Shown here in pieces: positions 5,238-22,190 of a stretch of 22,439 nucleotides of DNA. A program made the position numbers and the translations under genes. The stretch lies in IMG/VR virus record IMGVR_UViG_3300031088_000759, one strand, 5' to 3'. The DNA comes from a virus. Under the pieces are notes generated by a model that had not been told where the DNA came from, made no database searches, and saw only the letters and a program-made list of their open reading frames with translations. The first letter of the stretch is position 1, and every line of letters begins with the position of its first letter.

Positions 5238-5478
5238 TTAATGAGTTATTCAGTTTCAGATTAGAATTTGCCTTAATTGATTGATGACAATTATTGGTTC
5301 TATCTCTTGTGATAGTTGTTATTGTTGAATTTATTAAAATTATTGAAATATTTTTAATATTAATTAAAATTCATCATAATCTTGTTAAGATAACATTGAA
5401 AAACAAGCATGTAATTCATCCAGGATTGTAATAAGTATTATTTTTGGATGAAGAGTATTTTATTATGAGGAGTCTGTT

Positions 5479-6237: not shown

Positions 6238-6369
6238 AAAACGATTAGGTTAAAAAGTACATTATGAACGAAGTATTGTTTAAATAATTCGAATAATATT
6301 TAAAGATGAATGTTTAGAAAAGTCTATTATTAACATGTAGAACAACTTTTATACTATAAGGAATGTAAT

Positions 6370-7209
6370 ATGACTAAGTACCATATAAGCCCAAAAAGCG
6401 GTCGTCCTAATATTTGTCGTGCTGATAAGCAGGAATGCCCTCTAAAATCTGATGACGGAAAACCAGCGCCTCACTTTACAGATAAGTCAGAAGCAAAAGC
6501 TTACGCAGAAGGAATGCTTACAGAAGAACATGGTGCACTAAGTGTCATTGTTAAAAAGAAGCCTGAAAACAAAAAGACTTCTAAAGTAAAAACTTCAAAC
6601 AAAGAAGTTAATCAAGAAGCGGAGGAGAAAAGAGAGAGAAATACTTTATCTACCCCTATTCAAAGACCAAGAGTAGAAGAAATTCCTGATAATGCTATTA
6701 AAATCCTACAAAACAAAGAACGTTCAGTTCCTAGCTTGTCTAAAAAGCAAGAAAAGAAACTTGATGCTGATGTTGCCTTAGTTCTTGATAAAAATGTGGG
6801 AATTGATGAGAAAAAAGAGCTTTTGAAGAATCATTTAACTACTCCTGAAAAACGAGATGAAATAGCCGCAAGATTTACTGAACAAGGGTATTCTTTAGAA
6901 GACAGTTCAATTTATTCAGCACTTCTTAACAATGAGACTGGTGTTAATCTAACTCTTCGTAATGCCATAAGAGAGACTGAATCTAACGGAGAAACAACAT
7001 TGTCAGATGTTTTAATTAACGCTGAGGAAGCATCATATAGCCAAAACAATAGCTATAGTTCAGATAGGTTCTCTGAGTTCACTTATTCTGATAAAGAGTT
7101 AACTTTGGAAGACTTAGATAATGACACTGAAGAAGCACCTGATTTCTTAGCGGATGATCCTGATTTCGCTATTGATGAAGATGACGATGATTTTGATGAT
7201 GAAGATTGA
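6370..7209 (+). CDS. Hypothetical protein with N-terminal HCCH module and acidic C-terminal tail
   Basis: 279 aa. Starts KYH..GRPNICRA..CP..HF..EAKAYAE and ends in a D/E-rich tail. AAGGA RBS. Confidence 0.85.
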   Translation: MTKYHISPKSGRPNICRADKQECPLKSDDGKPAPHFTDKSEAKAYAEGMLTEEHGALSVIVKKKPENKKTSKVKTSNKEVNQEAEEKRERNTLSTPIQRPRVEEIPDNAIKILQNKERSVPSLSKKQEKKLDADVALVLDKNVGIDEKKELLKNHLTTPEKRDEIAARFTEQGYSLEDSSIYSALLNNETGVNLTLRNAIRETESNGETTLSDVLINAEEASYSQNNSYSSDRFSEFTYSDKELTLEDLDNDTEEAPDFLADDPDFAIDEDDDDFDDED

Positions 7210-7226
7210 TTATTAAAAAACTAATT

Positions 7227-7284
7227 AATAAATATAGTGAGAGCGACCAAAAACAAACATTTGGTCGCTCTCACTATATTTATT
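7227..7284. terminator. Bidirectional terminator-like hairpin, 25-bp perfect stem
   Basis: 7227-7251 is the reverse complement of 7260-7284, between convergent genes. Confidence 0.8.
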
Positions 7285-7298
7285 TGATATGTTATTGG

Positions 7299-7505
7299 TC
7301 AGTTAGAGAAAGAAGCAATAACCTGAGTATTTCCGTTATTATCCACCTCTGTAACATTTCCACTAACATTAAGGTCAGCAGTCATCTTTGCCAGATTCAT
7401 GAAAAGCTTCCGGCCTGCCTTGAAGTTTTCGTTTGCCAGCTCACGAGAGCTGTACTCTTCAACTTCAATCTTATCATTTGCTGTAAACTCAACGATCCAC
7501 TTCAT
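7299..7505 (-). CDS. Small hypothetical protein (68 aa, MKWIVEF...)
   Basis: GGAGG RBS precedes the ATG at 7505, so it is preferred over the track's start at 7520. Confidence 0.75.
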   Translation of the reverse strand: MKWIVEFTANDKIEVEEYSSRELANENFKAGRKLFMNLAKMTADLNVSGNVTEVDNNGNTQVIASFSN

Positions 7506-7543
7506 TTTTATAACCTCCAAAATATTTTATAGCTAGAAATAAG

Positions 7544-7572
7544 AAACAAAAACGCGGCTCCCGTTGAACCGC
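7544..7572 (-). terminator. Intrinsic terminator within a leader region
   Basis: Minus strand reads GCGGTTC-AACGG-GAGCCGC followed by GTTTTTGTTT (7-bp stem with one G-U pair, then a U-tract). Confidence 0.65.
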
Positions 7573-7662
7573 AATAAATTAAACAAATAATACATACAAT
7601 AGAGAACTAACGACTCATCATACTACTCCTTCAAATTCCTCACTAACGAATCTTATAAAAAT

Positions 7663-7691
7663 ATTATAACAAAAAAATCATACAATGTCAA
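7663..7691 (-). promoter_or_regulatory. Consensus sigma70/SigA promoter
   Basis: TTGACA-N17-TATAAT with an extended -10 TG on the minus strand. Confidence 0.85.
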
Positions 7692-7762
7692 ATCTCAGTG
7701 TTAGCTCTAAGTATTTTATTATGTTAAAATGAGAAGAGATGTATTGATAGCAAGGAGAAAAT

Positions 7763-8164
7763 ATGAAACCGCAAAAATATCATATTGAAACGATTCTTGA
7801 AAATATTTACGGAACGTTAGAGTATAAAATCGAAGAAGAAGAAACCCTTGATTCAGAATATCTTACACTAGAAGAAATCGAAGATTTAATTTCTGAATCA
7901 CTAAAAGGTTTTAAGAATACTTTATGCTTAGATTGTTGTGTTGAAACAATCCCCACAGAATACTATATGGTTACTAATGATCTTTGGAGTAAAGCAGTTC
8001 CCGAATATGAAGGAATGTTATGCATTGGATGCTTAGAAATGAGAATAGGCAGAAAACTTAATAAAAACGATTTCACAAAAGTTCCTGTTAACCATATAGA
8101 TGACCCTACACAAAGCAAACGGCTTAAAGATCGTAAGATTAGAACTGTTGATGATGATGACTGA
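7763..8164 (+). CDS. Phage-type CxxC...CxxC putative zinc-binding hypothetical protein
   Basis: CLDC...EYYMV..DLW...GMLCIGCLE.RIGR.L...DF motif resembles phage hypothetical proteins. AAGGAG RBS. Confidence 0.75.
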   Translation: MKPQKYHIETILENIYGTLEYKIEEEETLDSEYLTLEEIEDLISESLKGFKNTLCLDCCVETIPTEYYMVTNDLWSKAVPEYEGMLCIGCLEMRIGRKLNKNDFTKVPVNHIDDPTQSKRLKDRKIRTVDDDD

Positions 8165-8251
8165 AATAGACGGATATTAGATTAAGTAGTTATCTTCATT
8201 GGTTTGCTTAACATATAATTCGCAATAATTCGTAAAGGTTTGTGGTTCATT

Positions 8252-8656
8252 ATGCCCCAAGAAATTCTTTTTTCTTTGCCTACTGTTCTCTTGGTCATTA
8301 CTTTCTGTGTAGCTCTGTGTGTTATTGGCCTAGTTCTAAAAGACAAGATACAAGGTAAAGATGACAAGACAACATACAAACATAAAAGAACTATTCTAAT
8401 ATATATAGCCGCTATGGTAGGTTATATAGGTGCTATCCTCAATAAAGTGTTGCTTTTTACAAACGAAGAAGTAACCTTTTACAATTTTTTGATACCAATA
8501 ATCTTTTATCTTAGCATGGCAGTTCTAGCTGGTTATTTTGCTTTTAAAAAACCAGTTAAAGAAGACACAAATGGCTACACAGTAGAAGACTATTATTCTG
8601 TCCAATTTATCACTGTTCTTTTGTCAAGCTTTTTGCCTCTCATTCTTCTTCGCTAA
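8252..8656 (+). CDS. Hypothetical membrane protein (about 4 TM)
   Basis: Four hydrophobic segments. Start is ATG 8252 or TTG 8240. Confidence 0.75.
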   Translation: MPQEILFSLPTVLLVITFCVALCVIGLVLKDKIQGKDDKTTYKHKRTILIYIAAMVGYIGAILNKVLLFTNEEVTFYNFLIPIIFYLSMAVLAGYFAFKKPVKEDTNGYTVEDYYSVQFITVLLSSFLPLILLR

Positions 8657-8715
8657 ATAATAAGATTCTTGATAAGATATTGCTATTCAAGAATCGTTTG
8701 AGGAGTTGATGGCAT

Positions 8716-10053
8716 ATGCGCAAAAAAGTTATTGTTGCAATTGTTAGTAGTTTTGTCGTTTTGTTAGGTCTCAGTGTAACAGCAGCAAGCTTTGCTTTTA
8801 CAGCGCCCGGTTTCCATGTTAACGGAACTGATGTTGGATTTTCTACACAGAAAAAGGCAATAGAAAAATTACACAATACACTATCTGAAACCCCGATTAC
8901 TGTTAATGATGTAGAATTCACTTATGAGGAATTAGGTGTTACCTACGATGATAAAGCCTTGCAGGATTTCTTAAACGAGAACAAAGCTTATAACGTGGAT
9001 TCTTGGAATACAGCATTGTCTCATAGTATTAAAATTGATGAATCAAAAATGAAAGAAGCAGTGTCAAAAAAACTTCCCAATTCATACAGTGAGCCTACTG
9101 ATGCTGATGTAGTGTTAAATGAGAATGGCGAGTCATGGGACGTTGTTGAAGGAAAAAATGGAACTATGCCAATTGTTGAAGATTTGCGTAAAAACATTGA
9201 AAAAGATTTAACAGCTACAAACATAACTGATGATGTAAAAAAGTATGAGCTTGTTCAAGACAGTATTGAACCTTCTATCACCACAAAAGAAGCTGAAGAG
9301 TTTACAGGAAAACTAAATACCATGGCCGATGATGCTGGTTATTATGAAGGTGATGAGAAGAAGCTTGATATATCTCGCAGTAGTTTTGCTGAATTAGTTG
9401 CTGTTGAAAAGACTGAGGATGGATTTGCTGTAGTTCCGCAGGAAGATAGCTTACGAAACTATGCGGAAACTGTTCCTGATGAAGTTAATACGAAAGTAGA
9501 CAACGGTTCAGCTGTTGTTGACGAAAATGGTAAAGTTCTCAAAACTTTGGATGAGTTTAATGATGGATATGAGTTTAATGATGTAAAAGGACTAACATCT
9601 CGAAGCATTGAACAATTATCAAAAGGTGAAGGTTCTAAGTTCCAGCTTCAAGGTAAAAAAGTTGAAGCAAAAGTTGACGAAAAATTCCGTAGAATTGATG
9701 TTGATTTGGATGCTCGTGAAGTCCGTACATATGAGAACGAAAAATTAGTGAAAACCTATAAAGTTGCGATTGGTAAACCAGCAACACCTACTGATAAAGG
9801 TAAGTTCAAAGTCTTCCACCAGACTAAAATGATGGATATGGGATGTACTCCTGCTTATGATTATTGTACAAAAGACGTTCCTTTTGCAACATTTTACAAT
9901 GGTGGTGAAGCTTTCCACGGAACATGGTGGCACAGTGATTTTGGTAATACGAACGCTTCTATGAGAAGTCATGGTTGTGTAAACATGACAATTAGTGATT
10001 CAGAAGAAATCTATTACTTTGCTCAAACAGGAACACCAGTTCATGTATTCTGA
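8716..10053 (+). CDS. Membrane-anchored L,D-transpeptidase (YkuD domain) with a PG-binding/VanW-N-like stalk
   Basis: N-terminal signal/TM segment. C-terminal RIDVDL..VAIGKPATPT..G.F..AFHGTWW..SHGCVNM..GTPV carries the catalytic His and Cys. GAGGAG RBS. Confidence 0.9.
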   Translation: MRKKVIVAIVSSFVVLLGLSVTAASFAFTAPGFHVNGTDVGFSTQKKAIEKLHNTLSETPITVNDVEFTYEELGVTYDDKALQDFLNENKAYNVDSWNTALSHSIKIDESKMKEAVSKKLPNSYSEPTDADVVLNENGESWDVVEGKNGTMPIVEDLRKNIEKDLTATNITDDVKKYELVQDSIEPSITTKEAEEFTGKLNTMADDAGYYEGDEKKLDISRSSFAELVAVEKTEDGFAVVPQEDSLRNYAETVPDEVNTKVDNGSAVVDENGKVLKTLDEFNDGYEFNDVKGLTSRSIEQLSKGEGSKFQLQGKKVEAKVDEKFRRIDVDLDAREVRTYENEKLVKTYKVAIGKPATPTDKGKFKVFHQTKMMDMGCTPAYDYCTKDVPFATFYNGGEAFHGTWWHSDFGNTNASMRSHGCVNMTISDSEEIYYFAQTGTPVHVF

Positions 10054-10065
10054 AAACCAATGATT

Positions 10066-10127
10066 AATGCCGTAGAACAACACCTGGGCCACTGCCTGAA
10101 AGCGTCCAGGTGTTGTTCTACGGCATT
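10066..10127. terminator. Terminator-like hairpin, 22-bp perfect stem
   Basis: 10066-10087 is the reverse complement of 10106-10127, between convergent genes. Confidence 0.75.
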
Positions 10128-10207
10128 TTGAGGTATCTAAGCTATCTTTATCCTAATAGAGAGTTTAACGCTCTTATATGTCCGTTAATCGCTTTTAAGA
10201 GTAAACC

Positions 10208-10645
10208 TCAACTAGCCCTCTTCTTTGTTGTTGTGAGAGAAGTGTTCTCATAGTATTGTCCTTCTAAGAATCCTTGTCGAATGTAGTTATAACCACCATC
10301 AACAAAAACATTGCCACATGAGCATTCTTGAAAATCATGACGACTGATAGACTTTACAGTTGTCTCACACTTATAGCATTTTGCGGAATTTTCCAAAATT
10401 ACAGGATTTCCCTTGTTGTATGAATAATCATCAGGGTCAGGAATAAGAGTACCATCAGGGAATTCTCTTAGCATATTAACACCTGTAAAAACTAGCGGAA
10501 AATCCCTAAAATCATGATCACTAGGGTTATGGATAGGGCAGAATTCACCTAAACAAGTTCCCACAAGATGGACATTTTCGATAATTTGCCCGCTGCTCAA
10601 CTTAAAACTAGAGTTACCTAAAAATTCTACTGAAATATTTGCCAT
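10208..10645 (-). CDS. Cys/His-rich putative zinc-binding hypothetical protein (two modules)
   Basis: CLGEFCPIHNPSDH module plus CYKC..S.SRHDF..CSCG.VFVDGG..Y.R module. ATG 10645 follows AAGGTG; alternative GTG at 10654. Confidence 0.75.
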   Translation of the reverse strand: MANISVEFLGNSSFKLSSGQIIENVHLVGTCLGEFCPIHNPSDHDFRDFPLVFTGVNMLREFPDGTLIPDPDDYSYNKGNPVILENSAKCYKCETTVKSISRHDFQECSCGNVFVDGGYNYIRQGFLEGQYYENTSLTTTKKRAS

Positions 10646-10681
10646 TACCGTCACCTTATCTTTTAAAATTTTATATTAAGA

Positions 10682-10710
10682 ATAATACAGTCCAATACGT
10701 AGTTTGTCAA
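10682..10710 (-). promoter_or_regulatory. sigma70/SigA-type promoter
   Basis: TTGACA-N17-TATTAT on the minus strand. Confidence 0.7.
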
Positions 10711-10715
10711 CAATG

Positions 10716-10767
10716 CAAATAGTAGAACCGCAATAATGAGTTTATGTTATTGCGGTTCTACTATTTG
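10716..10767 (-). terminator. Terminator-like hairpin, 21-bp perfect stem
   Basis: 10716-10736 / 10747-10767, directly after the stop at 10778. Confidence 0.75.
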
Positions 10768-10777
10768 TCAGGTTTTA

Positions 10778-12001
10778 TCAAGCGTATTGTGTATCTCCAC
10801 GTTCGGCTTTTTGTTTATTAATCTCGGCTCTGTTTTCACGACTCTTAGCTGCAGATCTAGCCACACTTGGATAATCATTCTCTAATTTATTGAATAATTT
10901 AGAATCAGTATTGTCTTTATCATATAATAAATTAAATGCGTCCCCACGATCTATTGAGTAGTCTTTATCATAGGACATTCTGATACGTGTAGCAGCTGCG
11001 GATGCTTTAATAGAAGGATCATGTTGATTATTATCTTCCATAGCAAGAGAAATTCTATCTAAACGATGAGCAAGATCTATTCCAGCTGTATCTTGTTTAG
11101 CATATTCCATAATTTTGTTAAAAGGTTCTTTTTTGATCAATAAACCATTTTCAGCATCATTCATAACAGCTCGTGCAGATGCACGAATTACAGATGGTGA
11201 TACTGGATTGTTAGATATACGGTTTTTATCACGTTTGACTTTGACATTTGAACCATTTCCCAAAATTCCCTCATGTCCGTCAGCATAAGTGACTTTTAAT
11301 TCTGTGTTCATGTTTATATCCACAAATGGTTCAATTTTGACAATCTCTGCTGAATCATCTTCAACCCATTTTCCTGAATTAGTGAATTTTTCACCTGTGA
11401 TGATGTCACCAACGCGCAATGTACGAGCTTTTGTCTCAATTGTTTCGCGCTGAATAGTAAACTCATTTGCTTTTTCTTGTGCTGCCTTTTCTTCGGATCG
11501 CTTTTTGAGCTCTTTTCTAGCGTCAGGATTAGCAAGAACATCATTGATATACTTACTGCGCAAATTATCTAAATGATCAGATGGTATTTCTCCATAGCCA
11601 GATGCAATGTTTTCATCAAAGTATGCCTCTGCCAACACAGTAGCGTTTTTATCGGATTCTTCTTGAAGTCTTGCAGTATAACCTTTCGCAAAAGCGTCAT
11701 GTTGATTAGCATATTTTAGAAGTGCATCAGGATCATGCCTAGTCAATGCTTCCTCAGCGTGTTCTCTGCCCTTTTGGCGCTCTTTTTGAGCGGGGGTTAA
11801 CTTCTTAGGCTTATTTGCGCTTTTGACAACTTTTGCTGTTGCACCATATTCTTCTGTCATCTTTGTTTCAGCATAAACTTTTGCTTCAGCCTTAGTTTCA
11901 AAGTGAGGTGGCTCTTGACCATCAACAGCAAAATCGCACTTAATTTGTGCTTTACAAATGTTAGGTCTACCTGATTCTGGATTAACATGATATCTTGTCA
12001 T
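10778..12001 (-). CDS. Hypothetical multidomain protein with N-terminal HCCH module
   Basis: 407 aa. Starts RYH..GRPNICKA..C..HF..EAKVYAE, with a central beta-rich ARTLRVGDII...LKVTYADG segment. GGAG RBS. Confidence 0.85.
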   Translation of the reverse strand: MTRYHVNPESGRPNICKAQIKCDFAVDGQEPPHFETKAEAKVYAETKMTEEYGATAKVVKSANKPKKLTPAQKERQKGREHAEEALTRHDPDALLKYANQHDAFAKGYTARLQEESDKNATVLAEAYFDENIASGYGEIPSDHLDNLRSKYINDVLANPDARKELKKRSEEKAAQEKANEFTIQRETIETKARTLRVGDIITGEKFTNSGKWVEDDSAEIVKIEPFVDINMNTELKVTYADGHEGILGNGSNVKVKRDKNRISNNPVSPSVIRASARAVMNDAENGLLIKKEPFNKIMEYAKQDTAGIDLAHRLDRISLAMEDNNQHDPSIKASAAATRIRMSYDKDYSIDRGDAFNLLYDKDNTDSKLFNKLENDYPSVARSAAKSRENRAEINKQKAERGDTQYA

Positions 12002-12065
12002 TTTTTATACTCCAATACTTGAATAATAAATATTTATCAAGTATATTTCTAACAAGAAAACTAAA

Positions 12066-12374
12066 TTACATTAACTGCAGAATTGTCTTTTCAGCGTCAA
12101 GGTTTACTTCAAAAACACCATCATATTCTTTTTTCAGAACATCAAAATTGCTCATATTAATGGTTTCGCAAGTTTTTTGAGAACTCCAAAACTCGTATTC
12201 ATTAGTTACTGAATTATAATGATACCCATTATTCTCATGTCCTTGATCAATGATTTTGTAAATATCTAGCTTCTCTGTATGGAACAATTTTTCCAAAAAA
12301 GAAAAAGCATGACCATGAACAGTGGTGAATATTTTTGATTCATCTTTCGCGTAAAACAAAATAATTTTTGACAT
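12066..12374 (-). CDS. Hypothetical protein
   Basis: 102-aa ORF with AGGA RBS. Confidence 0.7.
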   Translation of the reverse strand: MSKIILFYAKDESKIFTTVHGHAFSFLEKLFHTEKLDIYKIIDQGHENNGYHYNSVTNEYEFWSSQKTCETINMSNFDVLKKEYDGVFEVNLDAEKTILQLM

Positions 12375-12539
12375 AATTATTTCCTATATTTTTAGTGGTT
12401 TAACTGACAATATCACTAATAATACGGGAAATAAGTTCTTTAAATCAATAAAAAGTGATGAGCAGCATACAATTAGAATAACGCTACAATAAAGGATGTA
12501 GTCTTAAACAATTTACTTACTCTTTTTTGGCACTCTCTA

Positions 12540-12890
12540 TCAGAGAGAATTTTTATTAAAAATATAATTATGCAGCTCTTCACTCTGTTTTTGCTGATTT
12601 CTCGGAACTATTTTGATAAGTTCAACATATTCATTATAGTTCTTGTTGATTACCGCATCATATGCGATAATGAATATGTTGACTACTATTGCTAAGACTA
12701 ACAAGCTTATGAAAAGGGCAATTGGTGTCATAGCTGTCCATGCTGGAATAGTATCAGCAAGCCCAAAAAATCCTATAATAGTCCCAAATGTCAAAGTAGC
12801 AAGAATGCTTAGTCCAAATAATATAGATGCTATTATAAGAACTATTTTAGAACTTTGAGTGAACCCGTTCTCCATGAATTTAAAAGTCAT
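12540..12890 (-). CDS. Hypothetical membrane protein (2 TM)
   Basis: 116 aa with two long hydrophobic helices. Confidence 0.75.
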   Translation of the reverse strand: MTFKFMENGFTQSSKIVLIIASILFGLSILATLTFGTIIGFFGLADTIPAWTAMTPIALFISLLVLAIVVNIFIIAYDAVINKNYNEYVELIKIVPRNQQKQSEELHNYIFNKNSL

Positions 12891-12950
12891 TGTATAACCG
12901 TTTCTGTAATAATGAGATAGTACTTTCCCTGACTATTTTAACAAAGAAAA

Positions 12951-13211
12951 TTATTCTTTTTCTAAAAGTTTCTTAGGGTCCATGTACGGAGTGCTATGAT
13001 CAACAAATGTTGTTAAATCATCGCTAATTTGAACTTCGGGTGGAACTCCTGCACGAGTGTATGAGATATTTCTTTTCTCGCAACTAACACACTTTCGATG
13101 TGAAGAATAGTGGATTCTCCAAGGCTCATTTTTCTCAAACCTGTACTTTGACACATCATAGCCTATGTGTTGCCATTTATGAAAACCTAAACCACATAAT
13201 AATATTCTCAT
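12951..13211 (-). CDS. Small DUF1660-like phage Cys/His protein
   Basis: MRILLCGLGFHKW...RKCVSC motif. GAGGGA RBS precedes ATG 13211; the track's longer start lies inside the secY terminator. Confidence 0.7.
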   Translation of the reverse strand: MRILLCGLGFHKWQHIGYDVSKYRFEKNEPWRIHYSSHRKCVSCEKRNISYTRAGVPPEVQISDDLTTFVDHSTPYMDPKKLLEKE

Positions 13212-13271
13212 TATTCCCTCACTTTTTATAATTATAGTTATCACCAAAGACATTCTATCATGGTTTTGCGA

Positions 13272-13318
13272 AAAAGAAAAGCAAGACACTTTCGAATTTT
13301 GTGTCTTGCTTTTCTTTT
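13272..13318 (-). terminator. Terminator after secY, 18-bp inverted repeat with A/U tails
   Basis: 13272-13289 / 13301-13318. Confidence 0.8.
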
Positions 13319-13335
13319 AATAATTAATTTTTAGG

Positions 13336-14580
13336 TCAGTAGAGCATTGACTGATGCTTACCTTTGAACCTTTCACTATCAACCGCTGCTATGAAGGTTG
13401 TCACAACTGTTCCAAGAATAATAATACTTGTAGCAGCAAAAGTGTTATTATTAATACCTAATAGTGGCAATGCGATGAAAGTACCAATACTGATTAGGGA
13501 CAAGTAAACAGCATCTAGAACTGCCATACGATTACCCAGCATTGTCAAATAATTGCGCGTTTCTTTACCGGGTCTTTGTCCATCAATAAAGCCACCTTGA
13601 CTGCTTAGTTCTGTGGAGATTCTTTCTACGTCAAAGACCATTTTAATTGAGAAGAATGTGAACAAAATTGTTAACAATACGAATACTCCGATGAAGGGTA
13701 TTGATCCGTATACCATATAACCTGCTACTGTAAGAACCCAATCTTTCGGATAGAATTGCGAAAGCATCGTAGGTAGCATTGCTAATGTACTAGCGAAGAT
13801 TACTGGAAGAACACCAGCAATGGCAACTTTGATAGGCAGCATTGATGCCTGTGTTGAGCGAGAAACATTATGTGCGCTCTTGGTGTATACGATGGGAACA
13901 CGCAGTTCGCTTTTTTCAACATATAGGATAAACCCAAGAACAAGAATGAGAAGACCACCAAAAATGAGAGCCATTTGTGTTCCCTGTGAGTTATATGTTT
14001 GTATAATCAATCCTGGAAGAGTAACTAGGATAGAAGTAAAGATAACAAGTGAAACACCATTCCCGATTCCTCGCAAAGTTATTTCTTCACCGATTCTCAT
14101 AGCAAGAATAGCACCTATAACCATAGTAAGAATTCCTACAATCATAGCAAATATTGAATCTGTAAGGAAAACGTCAAATCCCATAAGGGCTGGAGCACCA
14201 ATAACAATACCAATAGACTGAGTAAGCGCTAGTGGAATAGTTAGGTAACGTGTCCATTGAGTTATTTTTTGCCTATCAGCATCATTCTTGTACATTTCAT
14301 TGATTTTTGGAACAACTACTTTAAGAAGCTGCATAATAATAGATGCTGTAATATATGGCATCACACCTAAGGATAGAACACCTAATTGTGTCAGCGATCC
14401 ACCAACCATTGTAGTAGCAAATAACAAATTATTTATGCTAGGGTTAGAAACAAAGTTTTCGAAAGCTTCTGCATTAATAAAGGGAATGGGAATGCTCACA
14501 CCAATCCTATACAGAATAATCATAGCCACTACAAAAATGAGCTTCTCTTTTAAGCCCCAATCTTTACGACGATTAGCCAT
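13336..14580 (-). CDS. secY: Preprotein translocase subunit SecY (divergent, 414 aa)
   Basis: Motifs YRIG..IP.P, LGVMPYITASIIMQLL, KITQWTRYLT, GEEIT.RGIGNGVSL.IF, LPIK...GVLPVIFA, GGFI.G.RPG.ET..YL; about 10 TM segments. Start MANRRK at 14580 with AGGAGG RBS, overlapping the upstream TGA. Confidence 0.95.
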   Translation of the reverse strand: MANRRKDWGLKEKLIFVVAMIILYRIGVSIPIPFINAEAFENFVSNPSINNLLFATTMVGGSLTQLGVLSLGVMPYITASIIMQLLKVVVPKINEMYKNDADRQKITQWTRYLTIPLALTQSIGIVIGAPALMGFDVFLTDSIFAMIVGILTMVIGAILAMRIGEEITLRGIGNGVSLVIFTSILVTLPGLIIQTYNSQGTQMALIFGGLLILVLGFILYVEKSELRVPIVYTKSAHNVSRSTQASMLPIKVAIAGVLPVIFASTLAMLPTMLSQFYPKDWVLTVAGYMVYGSIPFIGVFVLLTILFTFFSIKMVFDVERISTELSSQGGFIDGQRPGKETRNYLTMLGNRMAVLDAVYLSLISIGTFIALPLLGINNNTFAATSIIILGTVVTTFIAAVDSERFKGKHQSMLY

Positions 14581-15071
14581 CAGTACAGTCCTCCTAAGAA
14601 CATTGGTGAGAATAAGCACAACAGAAGGAAGAGTAATCCAACTATTAAGGTAAATTTAGAAATCTTTTTTATAGCACCAGCAATACTTCCCTGATACTGA
14701 GAGCCGCTTCCTAGCAATGAAGTAAGCCCGTCACTGCTGCCTTGCTGAAATAGAACTCCAATTACAGACAGGAGACCGGTAAGACCCAGAGCACCTATAT
14801 ACCAATAACCCAAAGTTTTAGACTCAACTATTTCAGGCAACAATCCTTGAAGGCCGAAAGTAGCTTGTAATAACCCATAATCAATAAGAGCAAGAATAAC
14901 GGCAAAAATGACAACGATTAAAACAACGCGCCAGAAACTATTCCACCATTCTTTTACAGAGGGAACACGAACTTTTCTTACGGTACTCCAAAAATCATTA
15001 AGATTTTTCTTCAGTGATTTAATAGGCGAAACTTTTTTCACACTACTTTCACTAACTGTTTTATTATTCAA
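14580..15071 (-). CDS. secE-secG: Fused SecE-SecG translocon subunit
   Basis: N-half FWSTVRKVRVPSVKEWW...VVLIVVIFAVILALIDYGL fits SecE (K-V-x-x-P-x3-E, TM, D). C-half VLFQQGSSDGLTSLLGSGS...IKKISKFTLIVGLLF fits SecG. TTG start after GAGGA. Confidence 0.8.
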   Translation of the reverse strand: MNNKTVSESSVKKVSPIKSLKKNLNDFWSTVRKVRVPSVKEWWNSFWRVVLIVVIFAVILALIDYGLLQATFGLQGLLPEIVESKTLGYWYIGALGLTGLLSVIGVLFQQGSSDGLTSLLGSGSQYQGSIAGAIKKISKFTLIVGLLFLLLCLFSPMFLGGLY

Positions 15072-15194
15072 AACACATTCCTCACTTCGAAATATACATT
15101 AGCAACATACAATAATATCTTAACCAAAAAGTTTTGAAATAAATTAACTTTTTAGATAAAACAAAACGTTAACCGTATTTTTGATAATTCTATC

Positions 15195-15914
15195 TTATTC
15201 AAGAAAAGAATTATCAAAAGCAGAAGCCCATTCATCAGATGTAGAAGGATAATATTTGTCAAAGTTTCCCCAACCAACAGGATCTACGAGAATAGTTCTT
15301 CCCTGAGAATAAACATACCAATCAGCAACAGGATAAACATTGCCACTTGTTCCAGCGTAAATTACAACATCTGACCATTTAACAAGCTCTAATGCTTTGT
15401 CAAGATTTTTCAACCTCTCACCAAACAAAACAATATCAGGTCGAATTCTACCAGAATAGGTTAATGAAGATTCCACTCCACTGTTATCATGTGCTTTTTT
15501 ATTGTCATTTTTAGACTCAAACGGAGCAACAATATCACCATTAATGTTCTGTAACAGATCTGCAGAAAAAGTGTTATCAGAAGTAGCTTTTAACCTTCTC
15601 CATTTCAATAGAGAACCATGAATTTCAACAACTTTTTGAGAACCTGCTTTTTGATGTAAACCATCTACATTCTGAGTAACAACGTTCCATTCTTTTTCGG
15701 CAACTAAACGATGAAAATCCGTAGGTTCAGCATTCTTCATCGTAGTCAACAAGTCTAGCCACTTTGGTTTCAGATAATCTAAATGATTGCCATATTCTTT
15801 GGCATGACTATATTTATGAAATTTTTCATCATGCCATAAAGAATTTTGCGCACGATAAGTAGGTATTCCAGCAGAAGCACTAACTCCAGCGCCGGTAATA
15901 ACTGTAATCATCAT
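15195..15914 (-). CDS. cobB: Sir2/CobB-family NAD-dependent deacylase
   Basis: TGAGVSASAGIPTYR, TQNVDGLHQKAGS, EIHGS, RPDIVLFGE, GTSGNVYP. Start is probably ATG 15914 or 15911. Confidence 0.9.
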   Translation of the reverse strand: MMITVITGAGVSASAGIPTYRAQNSLWHDEKFHKYSHAKEYGNHLDYLKPKWLDLLTTMKNAEPTDFHRLVAEKEWNVVTQNVDGLHQKAGSQKVVEIHGSLLKWRRLKATSDNTFSADLLQNINGDIVAPFESKNDNKKAHDNSGVESSLTYSGRIRPDIVLFGERLKNLDKALELVKWSDVVIYAGTSGNVYPVADWYVYSQGRTILVDPVGWGNFDKYYPSTSDEWASAFDNSFLE

Positions 15915-16051
15915 AATTATTCTTTCTATTGTTAAACTTAACATAGCCCTAAAACATTATATCATAAACAATCGTATTCCGAAATAGACAAAATTTAGTC
16001 ACCATTCAAAAGATATTTTCATAAACTATTGCAACTAGGAAAGTACATACC

Positions 16052-17170
16052 ATGCTTAAAGAATTCCAGCGAATTGAAGCGTTTGACTTAGCGCGATTTA
16101 TTGCCTTGCTAGGAATCATCCTTAACCACACTTTACAAAGTAAAACGTTTGACCCTTTTATTCAAACTATGCAAGATTATCATGCTGTTCTTTTTGTATT
16201 GTTAATGGGTTTCTTCGCTCCTAAAAAAGAATCTTCTATGAAAAAAATATTCATCAAAGGATTCGTTCTCATAGGTGTTGGATTTGCGTTAGGTTCAGCA
16301 AGCATTGCAATTGACGTTATTCTTGTCAACTTAGGAATAATATTTATCGTAGGTTCTCTTATTGTCAGAACTATAAATAAAACGAAATATTTAATCATTC
16401 TAGCTTTAACATGGATGATACTTTCACCAATTCTTAGTGTGATTCTACGTAGAAAATTCGAAGAAGCAGTTACTCCAGAATCAATGAACTTCGGGACACT
16501 CATGATACAACATGCTCCTGAACAATTATTCGTTCATCCCTTTCTTTACTCACATTATCCAGTTTTACAGTGGATATCTTTCTTCTTTGTCGGAGCTATC
16601 CTGTCAAGAATCCTTATGAATCATAAAAATGTTTATGAAAGTTCTTTGTATGATTCGATGGACAAGTCTGTTATTAAAAAAATGACAATAACAGGGTTTT
16701 TGTTTTTTGTAAGTGCAAAGATAGTCTCGTTGCTGTTGGGTGGTGAGTTATGGAAAATGGACAATGGTTTTAGCAATGCTTACCAATGGAGCGATTTATC
16801 AAATTCAGGAGCTTATACAGGAACAACTTTGGGAATGATATCATCAATCGGAATTGGCTTGATTATTATAGCTTTGTGCATGTGGTTGACAAGTTTTAAA
16901 AAGGTAGATAAAAACGGGGGCACTCAAAGTGTAATACATGTTACACCTTACTTGTCAGGAGCTACATTATCCTTGTATGCAATCCATGTATATTCTTTCA
17001 CTGTTGTTCCACCTGATCTTTTGAAAGATGATGTAAAAGTTGTCTTATTGCTGATAGCTACTATTGTTCTGCTTGCCGTTTGTGCTTTAGTGTGGAGCAA
17101 AATTGGCAAGCGTTTTAATTTTACAAAACCAGGGCCATTAGAAGAATTTATGTTTTATTTGGCTAAATAG
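16052..17170 (+). CDS. Multi-TM acyltransferase-like protein (DUF418/DUF1624, HGSNAT-like)
   Basis: RI..FDLAR.IALLG...NH at the N-terminus, LFVLLMG, YPVLQW..FF.VG, TLSLY.IH; about 10 TM segments. Confidence 0.75.
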   Translation: MLKEFQRIEAFDLARFIALLGIILNHTLQSKTFDPFIQTMQDYHAVLFVLLMGFFAPKKESSMKKIFIKGFVLIGVGFALGSASIAIDVILVNLGIIFIVGSLIVRTINKTKYLIILALTWMILSPILSVILRRKFEEAVTPESMNFGTLMIQHAPEQLFVHPFLYSHYPVLQWISFFFVGAILSRILMNHKNVYESSLYDSMDKSVIKKMTITGFLFFVSAKIVSLLLGGELWKMDNGFSNAYQWSDLSNSGAYTGTTLGMISSIGIGLIIIALCMWLTSFKKVDKNGGTQSVIHVTPYLSGATLSLYAIHVYSFTVVPPDLLKDDVKVVLLLIATIVLLAVCALVWSKIGKRFNFTKPGPLEEFMFYLAK

Positions 17171-17382
17171 TTATTAAACGATAATTAGCAACTATTTTCT
17201 TGTTGTTTAAACCTCTTAAAACGGCTTAAAAAAGAACCCCCAAATTAACTCGATATAGACGCTGTTTTTTAGGGTCTTTTTTTGAAGAAATATGATAATT
17301 TTTCTAAAAAGTCAATTTTAGATAAGGGGTCCTGAAATCTTTAAAAATTTGGGGAAAGAGGCTCAGGGCAAAAATGAAGAAT

Positions 17383-17422
17383 AAATTAATACCCAACAAA
17401 ACAACAAGTTGGGTATTAATTT
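17383..17422 (-). terminator. Terminator-like hairpin, 15-bp stem
   Basis: 17383-17397 / 17408-17422, just after the stop at 17437. Confidence 0.65.
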
Positions 17423-17436
17423 TATTAAGGTTTAAA

Positions 17437-18747
17437 TTATTTGAATTTTGGCAAATATGTTGATGGGAAAACAGGGTATCCAGACGCTTTGATAGCAAAT
17501 CTAGTATATGTTGTTACCTTCTCTACGTTCCATGTGCTCAAGTTTTGATTGAAGTTATTAGCCTCCCTGAACATATTATCCATTTTTGTTACATTACTTG
17601 TGTCCCATGAACTTATATCTTGATTAAACTTACTAGCATTTCGGAACATACTCGACATTTCTTTTACATTGCTTGTGTTCCAAGAACTGATATCCTGGTT
17701 AAAAGCAGTGTTGCCATAAAATAAATTATTCATATAGACAACATTTGAAGTGTCCCAATCAGCTATGTTTGAACCGTTAAAAGATGACCCGCTGAATGCA
17801 CTATTTAAGTTGATTACAGTTGAAGGGATTTCATTTGGCACGGATTCAATAACAGCTCCGAAGCTTAGTGTATCCACACCTGTGTTTAAACCAATCTTCT
17901 CAACATTTCGTAGGCATGACCCAAAAGTGAGGGTATTAGCTGTAAAGCTATTAAAGTTTCCATCAACTGTAACTTTATAAGAAACCCCTGCGTTCAGAGC
18001 AATTTCTTCAGATACATTGCCCATATAAGCAACATACGGCTCTCCCTTAGAACTAGGGGCATATACATTGTTTAAAGTATCTCGTAACTCTTCTTTTGTT
18101 TCGAACATTCCAGGACTTTGTTTATTGTATAAGTCAAATACATAATCTAAATAAGAAATTTGTTCAAGCTTTCTAAAAGTAGATGGTGAGTTGCTTTCTT
18201 GAATATGAACTTCTGCACCTGATTGAAGCCCCGAAACTGGCATGAGTCCACTAGTTGTACTATCACATCTTAAAGTAAAACTTGTTAAAGCATCTTGAAT
18301 AGGAGGAAGAGTAGTCCCATCTCCGGGGTCAGGTGTTTCGCCAGGATTAGTACCGTTAGAAGGCGCAATTGTCTTACTCTTATCACCCATAGAAGCAGTC
18401 ACTGTAATAACACCAGTTGTTTCATCTTTATCAATCGTTATTGTTATCTCACGAGTTCCAGCGTTGCTCTTTCCATCGGAACCTTTCGACTTACTTCTAT
18501 CATAATCGTCTTTTGCTTGTTTATATGTAGTCCTATCATTATCATCAACATCATAAGCCACAGCAGCATCGTACACCATTTGAGCAGCCTGATCCAAAGC
18601 AGCATCATCAGCATTGTCCTGCATAGAACCGTATGCTGATACTCCACCTACACTCAATATTAGAAGTATTCCTACTGCAATAACAAGCTCTAAAAGCGAG
18701 AAACCATCTTGATTTAAATCACTTCTTTCCATTAAAGAAGGCTTCAT
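17437..18747 (-). CDS. Type IV prepilin-like protein with C-terminal DUF285/BspA-type repeats
   Basis: Class III signal G|FSLLELVIAVGILLIL (Glu at +5), a P/G/T-rich linker and FNQDISSWxTSNV repeats. GGGAG RBS precedes ATG 18747. Confidence 0.85.
   Translation of the reverse strand: MKPSLMERSDLNQDGFSLLELVIAVGILLILSVGGVSAYGSMQDNADDAALDQAAQMVYDAAVAYDVDDNDRTTYKQAKDDYDRSKSKGSDGKSNAGTREITITIDKDETTGVITVTASMGDKSKTIAPSNGTNPGETPDPGDGTTLPPIQDALTSFTLRCDSTTSGLMPVSGLQSGAEVHIQESNSPSTFRKLEQISYLDYVFDLYNKQSPGMFETKEELRDTLNNVYAPSSKGEPYVAYMGNVSEEIALNAGVSYKVTVDGNFNSFTANTLTFGSCLRNVEKIGLNTGVDTLSFGAVIESVPNEIPSTVINLNSAFSGSSFNGSNIADWDTSNVVYMNNLFYGNTAFNQDISSWNTSNVKEMSSMFRNASKFNQDISSWDTSNVTKMDNMFREANNFNQNLSTWNVEKVTTYTRFAIKASGYPVFPSTYLPKFK
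17510..17781 (-). repeat. About 3.5 tandem DUF285 repeats (25 aa / 75 nt)
   Basis: Repeat-initial Phe codons begin at 17781, 17703, 17628 and 17553. Confidence 0.85.
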
Positions 18748-18792
18748 AGCAACATCTCCCATTAAAATTACGTAATATTTACTAAATATCAA

Positions 18793-18836
18793 AAAATTAC
18801 CCTACCTGCATGCTTAAAAACAGGTAGGATAATTTT
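18793..18836 (-). terminator. Intrinsic terminator
   Basis: 16-bp stem with one U-G pair on the minus strand and a U-tract, after the stop at 18848. Confidence 0.7.
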
Positions 18837-18847
18837 ATTTACGAATT

Positions 18848-19726
18848 TCAAGCAAATATATCTTCATCAATTTTTGTCTCAGCACGACGACGGCCAGCAC
18901 CAGGTTTAGCAAATTCAACTGCTTCAACATCTGCTCTATGCCTTGCTTTTTGGGCTTTTTCTAGCCCTTTGAAGTATTCATCAACAACTTCTGGGCTAAT
19001 TCTACCCTTGGTAGCCTCACTCAATTTAGTCAATTCAACAACAGCTTCTCTTTGTCGTTTTTGAGGGGAAGCTTCACGCAACGCTTTCAACGCTTCTTTC
19101 TGGTAAGAAGAAGCAGCACTCAAACGATTAGAACCTTCATTAACAGCTTCACGCAAACGATTACGAGATTTCTTTACGTGACCAATTCCATTATTAACTT
19201 TATTTTCAATCTTATCCTCGTATTTTTGAACAAAATTGATATAACCTGATTCAAGTTTCCTATACTTCTCGCGGTTAGTATTTACAAAATTCCTTGCTCT
19301 AAGGCGAGCAAAACGGTAGTTTCCAATTATGCGATTTTTGAACTGGTTTTTCTTCTTTTCGCTTTTCTCTACAAGATTTTGGACATCTTTCATGAGCATA
19401 TTAAAATCAGCTTTAGCTTGTTTAATCTCTGGGGATGCTTTTACTAATCTAACACGAGCTTTTAGTCTATTGTTAGTTTTATTTATTTTCTTTATGCCCC
19501 TGTCACGTGTAGTATAGTAAGCCTGATGGGCTTTTTGAACCGCTTTATCGCTTTTTGAGACTGTGAGTGTTTGCCCGTATTTTGTTGATTGTTCATCTTC
19601 ATATGCTTTTTGAGCTTCTTCAAAATTTGTATAATGTTCTCCACCTGCAAGAGCGTAAGGGCATTCTTGAACAGATGCTTTACATAAACGGGGACCATTC
19701 GGGCTGTTGTGGTATTTAGCTGCCAT
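18848..19726 (-). CDS. Basic, predicted helical protein with N-terminal HCCH module
   Basis: 292 aa. Starts KYH..GPRLCKA..CP..HY..EAQKAYE, followed by a K/R-rich body. AAGGA RBS. Confidence 0.85.
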   Translation of the reverse strand: MAAKYHNSPNGPRLCKASVQECPYALAGGEHYTNFEEAQKAYEDEQSTKYGQTLTVSKSDKAVQKAHQAYYTTRDRGIKKINKTNNRLKARVRLVKASPEIKQAKADFNMLMKDVQNLVEKSEKKKNQFKNRIIGNYRFARLRARNFVNTNREKYRKLESGYINFVQKYEDKIENKVNNGIGHVKKSRNRLREAVNEGSNRLSAASSYQKEALKALREASPQKRQREAVVELTKLSEATKGRISPEVVDEYFKGLEKAQKARHRADVEAVEFAKPGAGRRRAETKIDEDIFA

Positions 19727-19878
19727 ATTTTCATATCCTTGTAAATTGGTAATACAATCTTTAATAAGTTTCTAAACGAAAATGCTGATTTTTGAAGTTT
19801 ACATCATATATTTATTCAAAAACAACAACCATATATTACCAAAATATCTGGAAAACGCTTTCATTCAAGAAAAACAAA

Positions 19879-19921
19879 AGAAAACAACACTAATAAAACA
19901 ATACCATTAGTGTTGTTTTCT
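19879..19921 (-). terminator. Intrinsic terminator, 16-bp stem
   Basis: 19879-19894 / 19906-19921. Confidence 0.7.
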
Positions 19922-19949
19922 CATAAGAATATAAAAACTAAATTTTAAA

Positions 19950-20264
19950 TCAGATTTCTAGTTGTTCTAATACTTTGATTCTCCAAGAAAGGTATTCATG
20001 AATAAGTTCCATCATATTCTCGTCATCTACTACATAAGCCTCATCTTCATCATCATCAAGAGACAACACAAGATCACGTGTACTGAGAATATTGAAAGAT
20101 TGTCCAATTGCTTCAAAATAAATACCTACTAGCTTGTTGTCAGAAGCTAATATGACAGTAGCATCATCCATATAATAAGCATTATGCTCTTCCAGCTCAT
20201 CGGGAGCAAAGTTCCGTCTAACATTCTTTACAAACTGAACAACTAAATCTTTATCGACTTTCAT
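19950..20264 (-). CDS. Small acidic hypothetical protein
   Basis: 104 aa with GAAAGGTG RBS. Confidence 0.8.
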   Translation of the reverse strand: MKVDKDLVVQFVKNVRRNFAPDELEEHNAYYMDDATVILASDNKLVGIYFEAIGQSFNILSTRDLVLSLDDDEDEAYVVDDENMMELIHEYLSWRIKVLEQLEI

Positions 20265-20363
20265 TATACACCTTTCGTAAAATATTCTTTACATTCAATA
20301 TCACCAGAAATAGTCAATCGAAAAAACATTGATAATGAGCAAAGTTTATTCATCAATAGTGGA

Positions 20364-20681
20364 TCAAACATTGTGAACTGTTACAAAACTAACTGGAACA
20401 CCAAAAGTATAAGCAATATATTTGGTCAGTGTGTCCAGGGTTAAATCATAGTTATCTACGTTTTTCCGATACTCTTTTTCGTCGCTACTTTCCAGGAATT
20501 TAAACATGAACCCCATAAAAACAGGATCATTAGTCTCAAGGTAGCTTATTAGATTAATAGGATTCTTCATCATACAAGCAACATCAGACGACGAAATGAC
20601 ATTTTGCAGCTCATTGACATCAGAAACATTAAAACTAAGCATTACTTTTTCATTAATTTTTACTGTAACGATCATTCTCAA
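20364..20681 (-). CDS. Hypothetical protein
   Basis: 105 aa, AAGGA RBS, has its own promoter. Confidence 0.75.
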   Translation of the reverse strand: MRMIVTVKINEKVMLSFNVSDVNELQNVISSSDVACMMKNPINLISYLETNDPVFMGFMFKFLESSDEKEYRKNVDNYDLTLDTLTKYIAYTFGVPVSFVTVHNV

Positions 20682-20709
20682 TCCTTTTAGAAACTTAATG
20701 GTCTTAAAC

Positions 20710-20738
20710 AGGATATCATGATAAGTCTATATTGTCAA
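20710..20738 (-). promoter_or_regulatory. sigma70/SigA-type promoter
   Basis: TTGACA-N17-TATCCT with an extended TG. Confidence 0.65.
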
Positions 20739-20746
20739 GACAAAAA

Positions 20747-20788
20747 AGAAGAGGAAACAAGAACATATTAGCTCTTGTTTCCTCTTCT
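20747..20788 (-). terminator. Intrinsic terminator, 16-bp stem plus U-tract
   Basis: 20747-20762 / 20773-20788, after the stop at 20802. Confidence 0.8.
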
Positions 20789-20801
20789 CGTGTAAAACCT
20801 A

Positions 20802-21059
20802 TCAGAGATGGTTAATCATGAACTCATGGGCCTCAACATAAGTGCGAAGAGTAGCCTCAGACACCACACCATCACGATCAATAGCCTTAGCAAAATTCTT
20901 CATGCCAGAAGGCGAAACCATGATATAGCCAGCATCCTTTCCTCCGGCATACGTGAAATCATTGAAACTCAGCGACGAATCCCTCTCCTCAGAACGGAGA
21001 CCAGACTCAAAGACCTCAACACCCGACTTAGCAACAAAATCAGCACCGAACATTTTCAC
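20802..21059 (-). CDS. Small hypothetical protein
   Basis: 85 aa, GTG start with GAGG RBS, flanked by a promoter and a terminator. Confidence 0.8.
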   Translation of the reverse strand: MKMFGADFVAKSGVEVFESGLRSEERDSSLSFNDFTYAGGKDAGYIMVSPSGMKNFAKAIDRDGVVSEATLRTYVEAHEFMINHL

Positions 21060-21093
21060 AACCTCTTTCTCAACTTGTTCAACTTATATCTAT

Positions 21094-21122
21094 ACTATAC
21101 CACGGATCAAAAAACTTGTCAA
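21094..21122 (-). promoter_or_regulatory. sigma70/SigA-type promoter
   Basis: TTGACA-N17-TATAGT with an extended TG. Confidence 0.75.
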
Positions 21123-21290
21123 CAACTAAAAGAAAGCGAAAGCAAGTCTCATCAACTCTATTAATCCCGCTCCTTATTCCTGAAAAAGTCTTTCTTCAGT
21201 GTTTTATTATTAATGTTTGATAAGCTATTTCTTAGCGAACTGGAAGCTAAAACCAGCCCATTGAATATATAAAAATATAGGAGACTAAGA

Positions 21291-22109: not shown

Positions 22110-22126
22110 TGAACGAATAAACGAAT

Positions 22127-22173
22127 AAAGATATCCCACACAGTTCAATTTGCTAACTGTGTGGGATATCTTT
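22127..22173. terminator. Bidirectional terminator-like hairpin, 19-bp perfect stem
   Basis: 22127-22145 / 22155-22173, between convergent genes. Confidence 0.8.
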
Positions 22174-22190
22174 TATTTTAACTTACAGTG

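Follow-up and report, generated by a model that had tools for sequence, protein, structure and literature searches.

A conserved two-chain Sec translocon variant with fused SecE and SecG, apparently not reported before, on a probable giant element

The secEG–secY unit and its fused subunit

The SecYEG channel is taught as an assembly of three chains encoded by three scattered genes. Here, we describe a two-gene Sec unit in which a gene for a fused SecE–SecG protein (secEG) overlaps a gene for SecY. The unit lies in the IMG/VR virus record IMGVR_UViG_3300031088_000759, a stretch of 22,439 nucleotides that is referred to in its entirety as the window. A sequence-only reading of the window had described the fused open reading frame (ORF), the stop/start overlap, a ribosome-binding site for secY and a closing terminator, all of which were located in the sequence at exact coordinates (Table 1). 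The TTG start of secEG is consistent with the size of its closest homologues (163–164 aa), and a longer secY frame starting with GTG at 14619 was dropped because the homologues comprise 413–416 aa and the ribosome-binding site sits at the ATG. The terminator-like hairpin (−24.3 kcal/mol, z −7.4) was equalled by none of 200 shuffles; its 11-nt loop had caused a simple terminator scan to pass over it. Long perfect hairpins with stems of 18–25 bp are found at 281–337, 7227–7284, 10066–10127, 10716–10767 and 13272–13318, mostly between convergent genes, and are likely bidirectional terminators. A promoter scan of the window remained at chance level (12 vs 12.5), and no tRNA was found in it.

Table 1. 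Coordinates of the Sec unit, its signals and candidate substrate genes in the window.
Feature	Position	Strand	Basis
secEG: SecE–SecG fusion, 163 aa, three predicted membrane helices	14580..15071	-	Pfam/NCBIfam, family of 24, PDB profile matches
GAGG ribosome-binding site, 8 nt 5' of the secEG TTG start	15080..15083	-	sequence
SecE half, aa 24–68: amphipathic helix, hinge proline, single transmembrane helix (TM)	14868..15002	-	PF00584, model
Predicted extracytoplasmic linker, aa 68–89	14805..14870	-	length and charge across 24 members
SecG half, aa 89–160: TM1, QxGxxxGLxxxxG loop, TM2	14592..14807	-	TIGR00810/PF03840, below cut-off
AGGAGG site for secY, within the secEG 3' end, 9 nt before the ATG	14590..14595	-	sequence
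TGATG stop/start: secEG TGA and secY ATG share one base	14578–14582	-	sequence
secY, 414 aa, canonical-type, distinct deep clade	13336..14580	-	TIGR00967, model, tree
Intrinsic-terminator-like hairpin: 18 bp stem, A/U-rich base, U run	13272..13318	-	folding
Candidate substrate: type IV prepilin-like N-terminus and PARCEL/DUF285 repeats	17437..18792	-	PF07963, TIGR02532, PF03382 over cut-offs
Candidate substrate and putative host marker: L,D-transpeptidase, N-terminal hydrophobic segment	8716..10053	+	PF03734

The proposed two-gene unit recurs with the same gene order and an overlap at a further locus, L023, where secEG and secY are adjacent and share an ATGA (49% guanine plus cytosine, GC); at locus L025 the linkage is partly seen, with a gap of 10 nt. 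Neither the window nor L023 contains rplO, rpsE, rplF, rpsM, adk or map, some of which are present at all 30 Actinomycetota control loci, and nusG, asp, gtf and secA have no match among the 30 ORFs of the window. The earlier statement that the customary spc and nusG neighbours are missing is thereby borne out.

The two halves of the fusion differ in how clearly they match curated models. The SecE half exceeds the cut-off of PF00584 (residues 24–68, 31.5 vs 22.7 bits) and stays below that of TIGR00964 (23.1 vs 27.55). The SecG half is a significant match, yet remains below both curated cut-offs (PF03840: residues 98–154, E 1e-4, 22.7 vs 29.2 bits; TIGR00810: 30.1 vs 30.85). The Pfam check suggested for each half came out in favour of SecE and, for SecG, ended just below the cut-off. 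A comparison of the window SecG half with a plasmid SecG in hhalign gave E 9e-4 at a probability of 23%. The 163-aa protein has hydrophobic segments at 49–67, 90–108 and 142–160, and its AlphaFold model (predicted local distance difference test, pLDDT, 78.9) places helices of the SecE half at 16–33 and 39–77. Across the family W42 is invariant and P37 nearly so in the SecE half, and in the SecG half G111, G115 and G121 are invariant, the TMs at 90–108 and 142–160 enclosing a Gly-rich loop of 33–34 aa. Across the 24 members, lysines plus arginines average 6.2 ahead of TM1, 1.0 within the linker and 2.6 within the SecG loop, a bias that fits an N-in, linker-out, loop-in, C-out arrangement. Because of this charge bias and the three hydrophobic segments, the chain is predicted to have its N-terminus inside, its linker outside and its C-terminus outside, in agreement with the earlier view of a topologically coherent fusion. 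Foldseek returned nothing for the model at E ≤ 0.001, as expected because the model helices are loose, and the ESM Atlas gave no usable match.

The fusion belongs to a family of 24 full-length proteins of 135–193 aa with 29–76% identity, which answers the suggested search for other secE–secG fusions. The searches contributed 12 proteins from 267 candidates and 16 from 1.84 billion representatives; three of these were left out of the alignment, P0025 and P0026 because they match through repeats of long proteins and P0027 because it matches SecG alone. At E ≤ 0.01, Pfam recognizes SecE in 21 and SecG in 22 of the 24 members, and a family profile searched against the PDB matches SecE of 3din with its first half (E 2e-6) and SecG of 3dl8 with its second (E 0.003). 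The linker measures 20–22 aa in every member. Since a family of this size exists, an assembly artefact is ruled out as the origin of the fusion. All members stem from metagenomic assemblies. No relative came up when metagenome and GTDB collections were scanned with a pattern of the fusion or when IMG/VR was searched, and tblastn against PLSDB gave no match at E ≤ 1. In 401 Actinomycetota genomes (a tally that includes six unpublished genomes) the profile matched SecG halves only, in eight genomes at E ≤ 1e-8, among them the unpublished G121. A literature search, with most subscription journals outside it, turned up no description of a natural SecE–SecG fusion; the term 'SecEG' in the available part of bioRxiv 10.1101/2020.12.20.422553 denotes two subunits and no fusion.

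SecY: clade, linkage to the fusion and channel anatomy

The window SecY exceeds the cut-offs of the canonical models (TIGR00967: 280.8 vs 253.6; PF00344: 244.2 vs 32.2) and fails both SecY2 models (130.5 vs 353; 125.4 vs 249.6). Together with 45 relatives at 38–98% identity it forms a clade of 46 proteins known from metagenomic records only; the next tier, mostly actinobacterial SecYs, follows at 34–38%. The clade is monophyletic on a long stem (support 100/100 with 12 members and 100 with 26 members) and branches separately from SecY2, which answers the SecY2 part of the phylogenetic check suggested earlier. Its placement depends on the rows included: With sequences of the Candidate Phyla Radiation (CPR) it joins the SecY of Gracilibacteria, Absconditabacteria and Peribacteria (98/96), whereas their omission makes it the sister group of Actinomycetota (Shimodaira–Hasegawa-like approximate likelihood ratio test, SH-aLRT, 85). 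We regard the former grouping as unreliable because the CPR rows had been pre-selected by a DNA pattern derived from the clade itself and because a quick tree flagged long-branch joining. Pattern scans at the DNA level yielded 20 + 13 SecY loci, with L023 and L025 as the sole representatives of the clade among them; no member was found by such scans in 185,579 GTDB genomes, nor in the 401 Actinomycetota genomes, where the best score was 361 bits compared with 520–683 for members, the latter range being circular.

Beyond L023 and L025, we infer the linkage of fusion and SecY from equal contig sizes: 20 of 47 fusion contigs share their exact size in base pairs with one of 54 clade-SecY contigs, in contrast to 0 of 75 for outgroup SecYs. 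Moreover, the identity matrices of both proteins are correlated, with rho 0.82 for 19 pairs (reached in 0 of 5000 permutations) and rho 0.43 for nine deep pairs (78 of 5000). Judged by these sequence comparisons, the fusion co-diverges with one deep monophyletic SecY clade. In a codon comparison with three other runs, for which 40 differences were listed, the changed codons are synonymous in 28 of 28 cases in secY and 9 of 11 in secEG, against approximately 24% expected by chance. This codon pattern shows purifying selection on both genes.

The AlphaFold model of SecY (pLDDT 70) displays the ten-helix clamshell, with TM-scores of 0.80 to Thermus thermophilus 5AWW and 0.82 to 5NCO. The pore ring we take to be formed by I82, I86, I187, I191, I278 and I408 of Escherichia coli SecY, isoleucines that were confirmed in the E. 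coli protein. The equivalents of I86, I191, I278 and I408 are invariant in all 46 clade members; the I82 position is valine in 45 and isoleucine in one, and the I187 position varies (T in 26, V in nine), with valine in the window. The equivalent of R357 in the C5 loop is arginine in 40 members, including R336 of the window, and lysine in three. A different picture emerges for the plug and the C4 loop, as judged against 72 SecY comparators that are mostly Actinomycetota and with loop alignments that are uncertain. Of the 46 clade members a single one retains the plug residue F67, vs 68 of 72 others; N65, S68 and R251 do not occur among the clade's listed residues, with N65 present in 61 and S68 in 60 of the 72 others. 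G403 is replaced by alanine in 44 of 46 members, Y429 is lost, and the C4 loop is 15–18 aa long instead of 19, with a mean of 0.96 arginines vs 2.6. According to the available part of PMC3101351, plug mutations reduce signal-sequence fidelity, and the C4 and C5 loops bind SecA, the ribosome and FtsY.

For the complex of SecY with SecEG, the prediction scored 0.59 vs 0.00 for the best control, with contacts agreeing to at least 84% and a partner pLDDT of at least 65. The mark applied is reached by 116 of 157 solved pairs and 2 of 215 mismatched pairs, with 18 of the solved pairs and both mismatches lying at or below 0.60. Similar SecYEG complexes have already been solved, and likeness to them may explain the score; the prediction lends weak support to binding of SecEG to SecY.

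Carrier, host and neighbouring genes

The fusion record sits on a contig of 727,572 bp, and one contig of the phyllosphere metagenome run X1, which may be the source of this DNA, matches window positions 3000–22427 with 0 differences. Seven of the 30 window ORFs exceed a Pfam cut-off: the two Sec proteins, the L,D-transpeptidase, a Sir2 protein, an acyltransferase-like membrane protein, a DUF7695 protein and the prepilin/PARCEL protein. Apart from Sec none is a housekeeping gene. Coding density is 83%, and the GC content of the element is 33–38%. Neither secA (also searched for within 10 kb either side of the unit in L023) nor a virion gene was found in the window, and asp1–3, gtfAB, secA2 and a serine-rich repeat substrate are missing among the 30 window and 24 L023 ORFs. 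L023 carries ArdC, ART-PolyVal and YqaJ genes. We infer that the carrier is a giant extrachromosomal element, with a plasmid-like one more likely than a phage; the location on an element proposed by the sequence-only reading is probable from the context without housekeeping genes and from the 727-kb contig. An unlinked secY alone is no proof of an element, because a Peribacteria metagenome-assembled genome (L040) and the second copy of Planomonospora (L034) likewise have secY without ribosomal neighbours. The best named relatives of the L,D-transpeptidase (34–37% identity) come from Labedella, Microbacterium and Paramicrobacterium, which we take to be Microbacteriaceae, and point to a likely host in this family. 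One further relative of the transpeptidase lies on a contig of 681,645 bp.

Several observations concern the wider element. Relatives of window genes occur on very long contigs (P0196, 681,645 bp; P0153, 300,084 bp), which suggests a family of elements of approximately 0.7 Mb. Four otherwise unrelated ORFs, at 1705–1860(+), 6370–6531(+), 11840–12001(−) and 19568–19726(−), share an N-terminal motif of about 50 aa, M..YH...G.P..C.A....C...H...EA...E, and a different repeated motif, M..L..CPN.GKCGS.RH, is found in L023 on ArdC, ART-PolyVal and other proteins; such a repeated N-terminal motif may be a delivery or targeting tag. A weak match to the window motif adjoins a PilT-like ATPase on the Arthrobacter plasmid NZ_CP104273 (L091), and the N-terminus of the ORF at 6370 has no match in plasmids or phages. 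In the ORF at 1705–2826(+), a lipoprotein-like signal sequence (hydrophobic, ending in LVAC at about residue 85) begins approximately 60 residues inward, behind the motif; an acidic linker comes next, and then a weak HNH-like domain. Two perfect 55-bp inverted repeats (1081–1135 and 1516–1570) flank about 380 bp of non-coding DNA and are possibly of the miniature inverted-repeat transposable element type, invertible or origin-like.

Proposed function, alternatives and relation to known Sec systems

We hold it moderately probable that the unit encodes a two-chain SecYEG on a giant, plasmid-like element whose host is an actinobacterium of plant surfaces, where it would be driven by the SecA of the host and export envelope proteins of the element. 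Translational coupling together with the fusion would supply E, G and Y at a fixed ratio. As FtsH degrades SecY that is without SecE, according to the available part of PMC8082313, an immediate clamp by its own SecE would allow the element SecY to escape degradation of this kind and make it independent of the host SecE and SecG, from which it has diverged. The SecE helix is predicted to run from inside to outside and to be followed by 20–22 aa of outside linker and TM1 of SecG, with SecG in its usual orientation on SecY. Because the pore ring and the R357 equivalent are kept, the channel would conduct, mostly with SecA and probably that of the host; the gate is probably retuned, as plug and C4-loop residues have been replaced across the clade. 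By analogy, its cargo would be the prepilins, lipoproteins, cell-wall enzymes and membrane proteins that the element encodes, and the channel would add capacity under the control of the element and not a strict exclusivity.

A number of findings weigh against this reading. The SecG half scores below the curated cut-offs, and a 3,792-bp ENA contig carries a split fusion, P0180 (58 aa, SecE) and P0173 (96 aa, SecG), whose break falls at the end of the SecE helix; the other nine members of that cluster are whole, and the split copy may reflect an error or a natural fission. The host call relies on a single protein at 34–37% identity in an element of 33–38% GC. Nesting of the SecY clade in Microbacteriaceae is marginally rejected (approximately unbiased test, p 0.041), as is a grouping with Arthrobacter-plasmid SecY (p 0.020). 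Of 83 near-universal SecY positions, the clade keeps 52 and loses 18; the lost positions may reflect fast drift instead of retuning, and since their number is this high, part of the plug and C4 change may be drift as well. The contigs behind the codon comparison are only 2–7x deep, with a further five differences outside those listed, and the sequence read covers 22 of the 727 kb of the contig.

The same gate residues can be read differently, namely as an orthogonal, dedicated route in which a SecA or other motor encoded elsewhere on the 727 kb drives a relaxed, Prl-like gate that accepts non-standard signals. This we judge unlikely. It draws on the clade-wide changes in the plug, G403, C4 loop and Y429, on the reduced signal fidelity that plug mutations cause (PMC3101351, in the part available), on the SecY2 of L047, where plug and loop are similarly changed while Arthrobacter-plasmid SecY keeps the canonical ones, and on the own secA of Lactobacillus megaplasmids, L016 and the 816-kb plasmid of Miltoncostaea. 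However, secA is found neither in the window nor within 10 kb either side in L023, the SecA-binding R357 and C5 loop are kept, and the residue changes are subject to the uncertain loop alignments and the mostly actinobacterial comparators. The very large, low-GC contig with its many orphan ORFs and 83% coding density would also suit a huge phage or phage-plasmid whose channel keeps up the insertion of membrane proteins once the host is shut off or replaces the host translocon, and three PHROG matches of note and weak structural look-alikes of the N-terminal motif among Uroviricota clusters of the Atlas point the same way. Yet scans of IMG/VR with the SecY protein, the SecY DNA pattern, SecEG, P0196 and the N-terminal motif found no relative, a profile of the L,D-transpeptidase gave four distant loci there (23–46% over parts), the SecY matches in INPHARED show 29–35% identity and resemble host fragments, and the window has no virion gene. 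Since the prepilin and polyvalent-protein context additionally resembles megaplasmids, and the Hodor megaplasmids were themselves first mis-sorted as viral (PMC12934698, in the part available), we rate the phage reading as distinctly unlikely.

A cellular origin, with the unit as sole translocon or chromosomal-island paralogue of an uncultured low-GC lineage (e.g., CPR-like), would be in line with the grouping with CPR SecY, with the lack of ribosomal neighbours at L040 and L034, and with a 727-kb contig that could be part of a small chromosome. Its credit is diminished by the pre-selection of the CPR rows, without which the clade is sister to Actinomycetota, by the missing housekeeping genes in the 22-kb window and in 20 kb of L023, and by the failure to find a clade member by pattern among the GTDB genomes. 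Moreover, six intact window genes with 149 glycines contain no internal TGA, whereas five of six CPR SecYs use 4–16 TGA codons as glycine, which rules out an origin from CPR with genetic code 25; a cellular lineage altogether appears improbable. The 18 lost positions and the one split copy could further mean that the pair is a relic in decay, or that it conducts nothing and merely binds SecA or ribosomes as a scaffold or decoy. This is very improbable in view of 37 synonymous among 39 changed codons, a pore ring that does not vary among 46 proteins with identities as low as 38% and an intact fusion in all 24 aligned members. A bolder version of the proposal, in which a lineage of approximately 0.7-Mb elements in plant-surface Actinomycetota operates a two-chain channel, orthogonal to that of the host and made permissive and ribosome-uncoupled by the rewritten plug and C4 loop, that exports element proteins which the host channel would reject, with the fusion locking both SecG topology and the E:G:Y ratio, is in our opinion unlikely.

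A natural, old and selected SecE–SecG fusion shows that a two-gene Sec build is evolutionarily viable. It also constitutes a natural test of the topology-inversion model of SecG (the available part of PMC9437254). Tethered to the outer end of SecE, SecG should not flip freely. An opposing study reportedly speaks of a 'topologically fixed SecG'. If active, the self-balancing cassette of 1.7 kb would lend itself to structural studies and to use in synthetic cells, and the clade-wide plug changes amount to a natural experiment on signal-sequence proofreading. The fusion family furthermore points to very large elements, with contigs of 727, 682 and 300 kb, that form a group yet to be characterised.

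An element-encoded SecYEG is in itself no novelty, contrary to what the sequence-only reading had implied, as Hodor, Arthrobacter and Lactobacillus megaplasmids already carry unfused sets. Hodor megaplasmids encode SecY (447 aa), SecE (84 aa) and SecG (87 aa) in a co-transcribed secY-secG-secE order in 38 of 38 elements, and their SecYGE is proposed to export surface proteins of the element (available part of PMC12934698, Yuan et al., bioRxiv 2026); no SecA turned up in the available text and supplement 1 of that paper. By its description, Hodors resemble the present element in carrying a complete SecYEG and differ in their separate SecE and SecG, their gut Bacillota hosts and the location of Sec beside sortase B, trigger factor and a protein of more than 7300 aa, none of which occurs in the window or L023. 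In the Arthrobacter giant plasmids NC_011879, NZ_CP104273 and NZ_CP053545 secG lies directly upstream of secY (3/3), secE lies elsewhere on the plasmid (2/2 searched), prepilins are present (3/3) and secA is absent (0/3). These pACHL01-type plasmids differ in their unfused subunits, a SecY nested in Micrococcales, a canonical plug and 65% GC; a likeness is a weak match to the window N-terminal motif (E 0.004, one of five records). Their secE is located two genes from YccA/Bax-inhibitor-1 genes (L054 1591–4515, L055 5167–7289). As the available part of PMC8082313 counts YccA among the inhibitors of FtsH, these plasmids may also shield SecY from degradation. For Lactobacillus, a 'third SecY-SecA system' is mentioned for a L. 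reuteri megaplasmid (PMC7446861, in the part available), and two megaplasmids carry a secG-secE-secA-secY operon away from ribosomal genes; in contrast to the present unit they have their own SecA and an unrelated SecY branch, and their SecG is fused to an N-terminal domain of approximately 220 aa that is not SecE (L043 2489–3370, L045 2447–3295).

Further secY genes were encountered outside ribosomal operons. A separate SecY lineage (L016, L009, L020 and L024; ENA metagenome contigs of 54–110 kb) forms a secY-secG-secE-secA operon, read in L016 (9416–14098), that has no ribosomal neighbours, adjoins an LPxTG-like surface protein and is probably another element-borne Sec system. The 816-kb plasmid of Miltoncostaea oceani (L048/NZ_CP064357) combines a very divergent SecY with its own SecA and seven prepilin-motif matches, six of them over the cut-off. 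Solo extra secY genes without ribosomal neighbours occur in Planomonospora venezuelensis (L034), on Streptomyces plasmids (L002, L005, L006), in Bifidobacterium (L003, 193 kb) and, next to lgt, on Paraburkholderia pBIL (L042). 'Plasmid' matches from Clostridioides difficile, Comamonas and Agathobacter turned out to be spc operons and were discarded as element Sec genes. Along with the Sec genes of Hodors and of the plasmids from Arthrobacter, Lactobacillus and Miltoncostaea, the present unit shows that the acquisition of a Sec channel of their own has recurred among giant elements.

The accessory SecY2/SecA2/Asp system shares with this unit a second, divergent channel with altered plug and C4 loop, and its Asp4 and Asp5 stand in for SecE and SecG (available part of PMC5076819). 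The distinction drawn earlier between the two holds: The window SecY fails both SecY2 models and sits on a separate branch, and asp1–3, gtf, secA2 or a serine-rich substrate do not lie nearby. With canonical SecYEG the unit has in common the SecY fold and TIGR00967 match, the pore ring, R357, a single-TM SecE with amphipathic helix and a two-TM SecG. It departs from it in uniting SecE and SecG in one chain, in its two-gene organization outside the spc, nusG and secG loci, and in the replaced plug (N65, F67, S68), C4 arginines, G403 and Y429 of a deep separate clade. The SecE–SecG fusion and the clade-wide rewriting of plug and C4 loop appear to be what is new in this two-chain Sec variant, which is real and conserved, has apparently not been reported before and is probably carried by a giant element.

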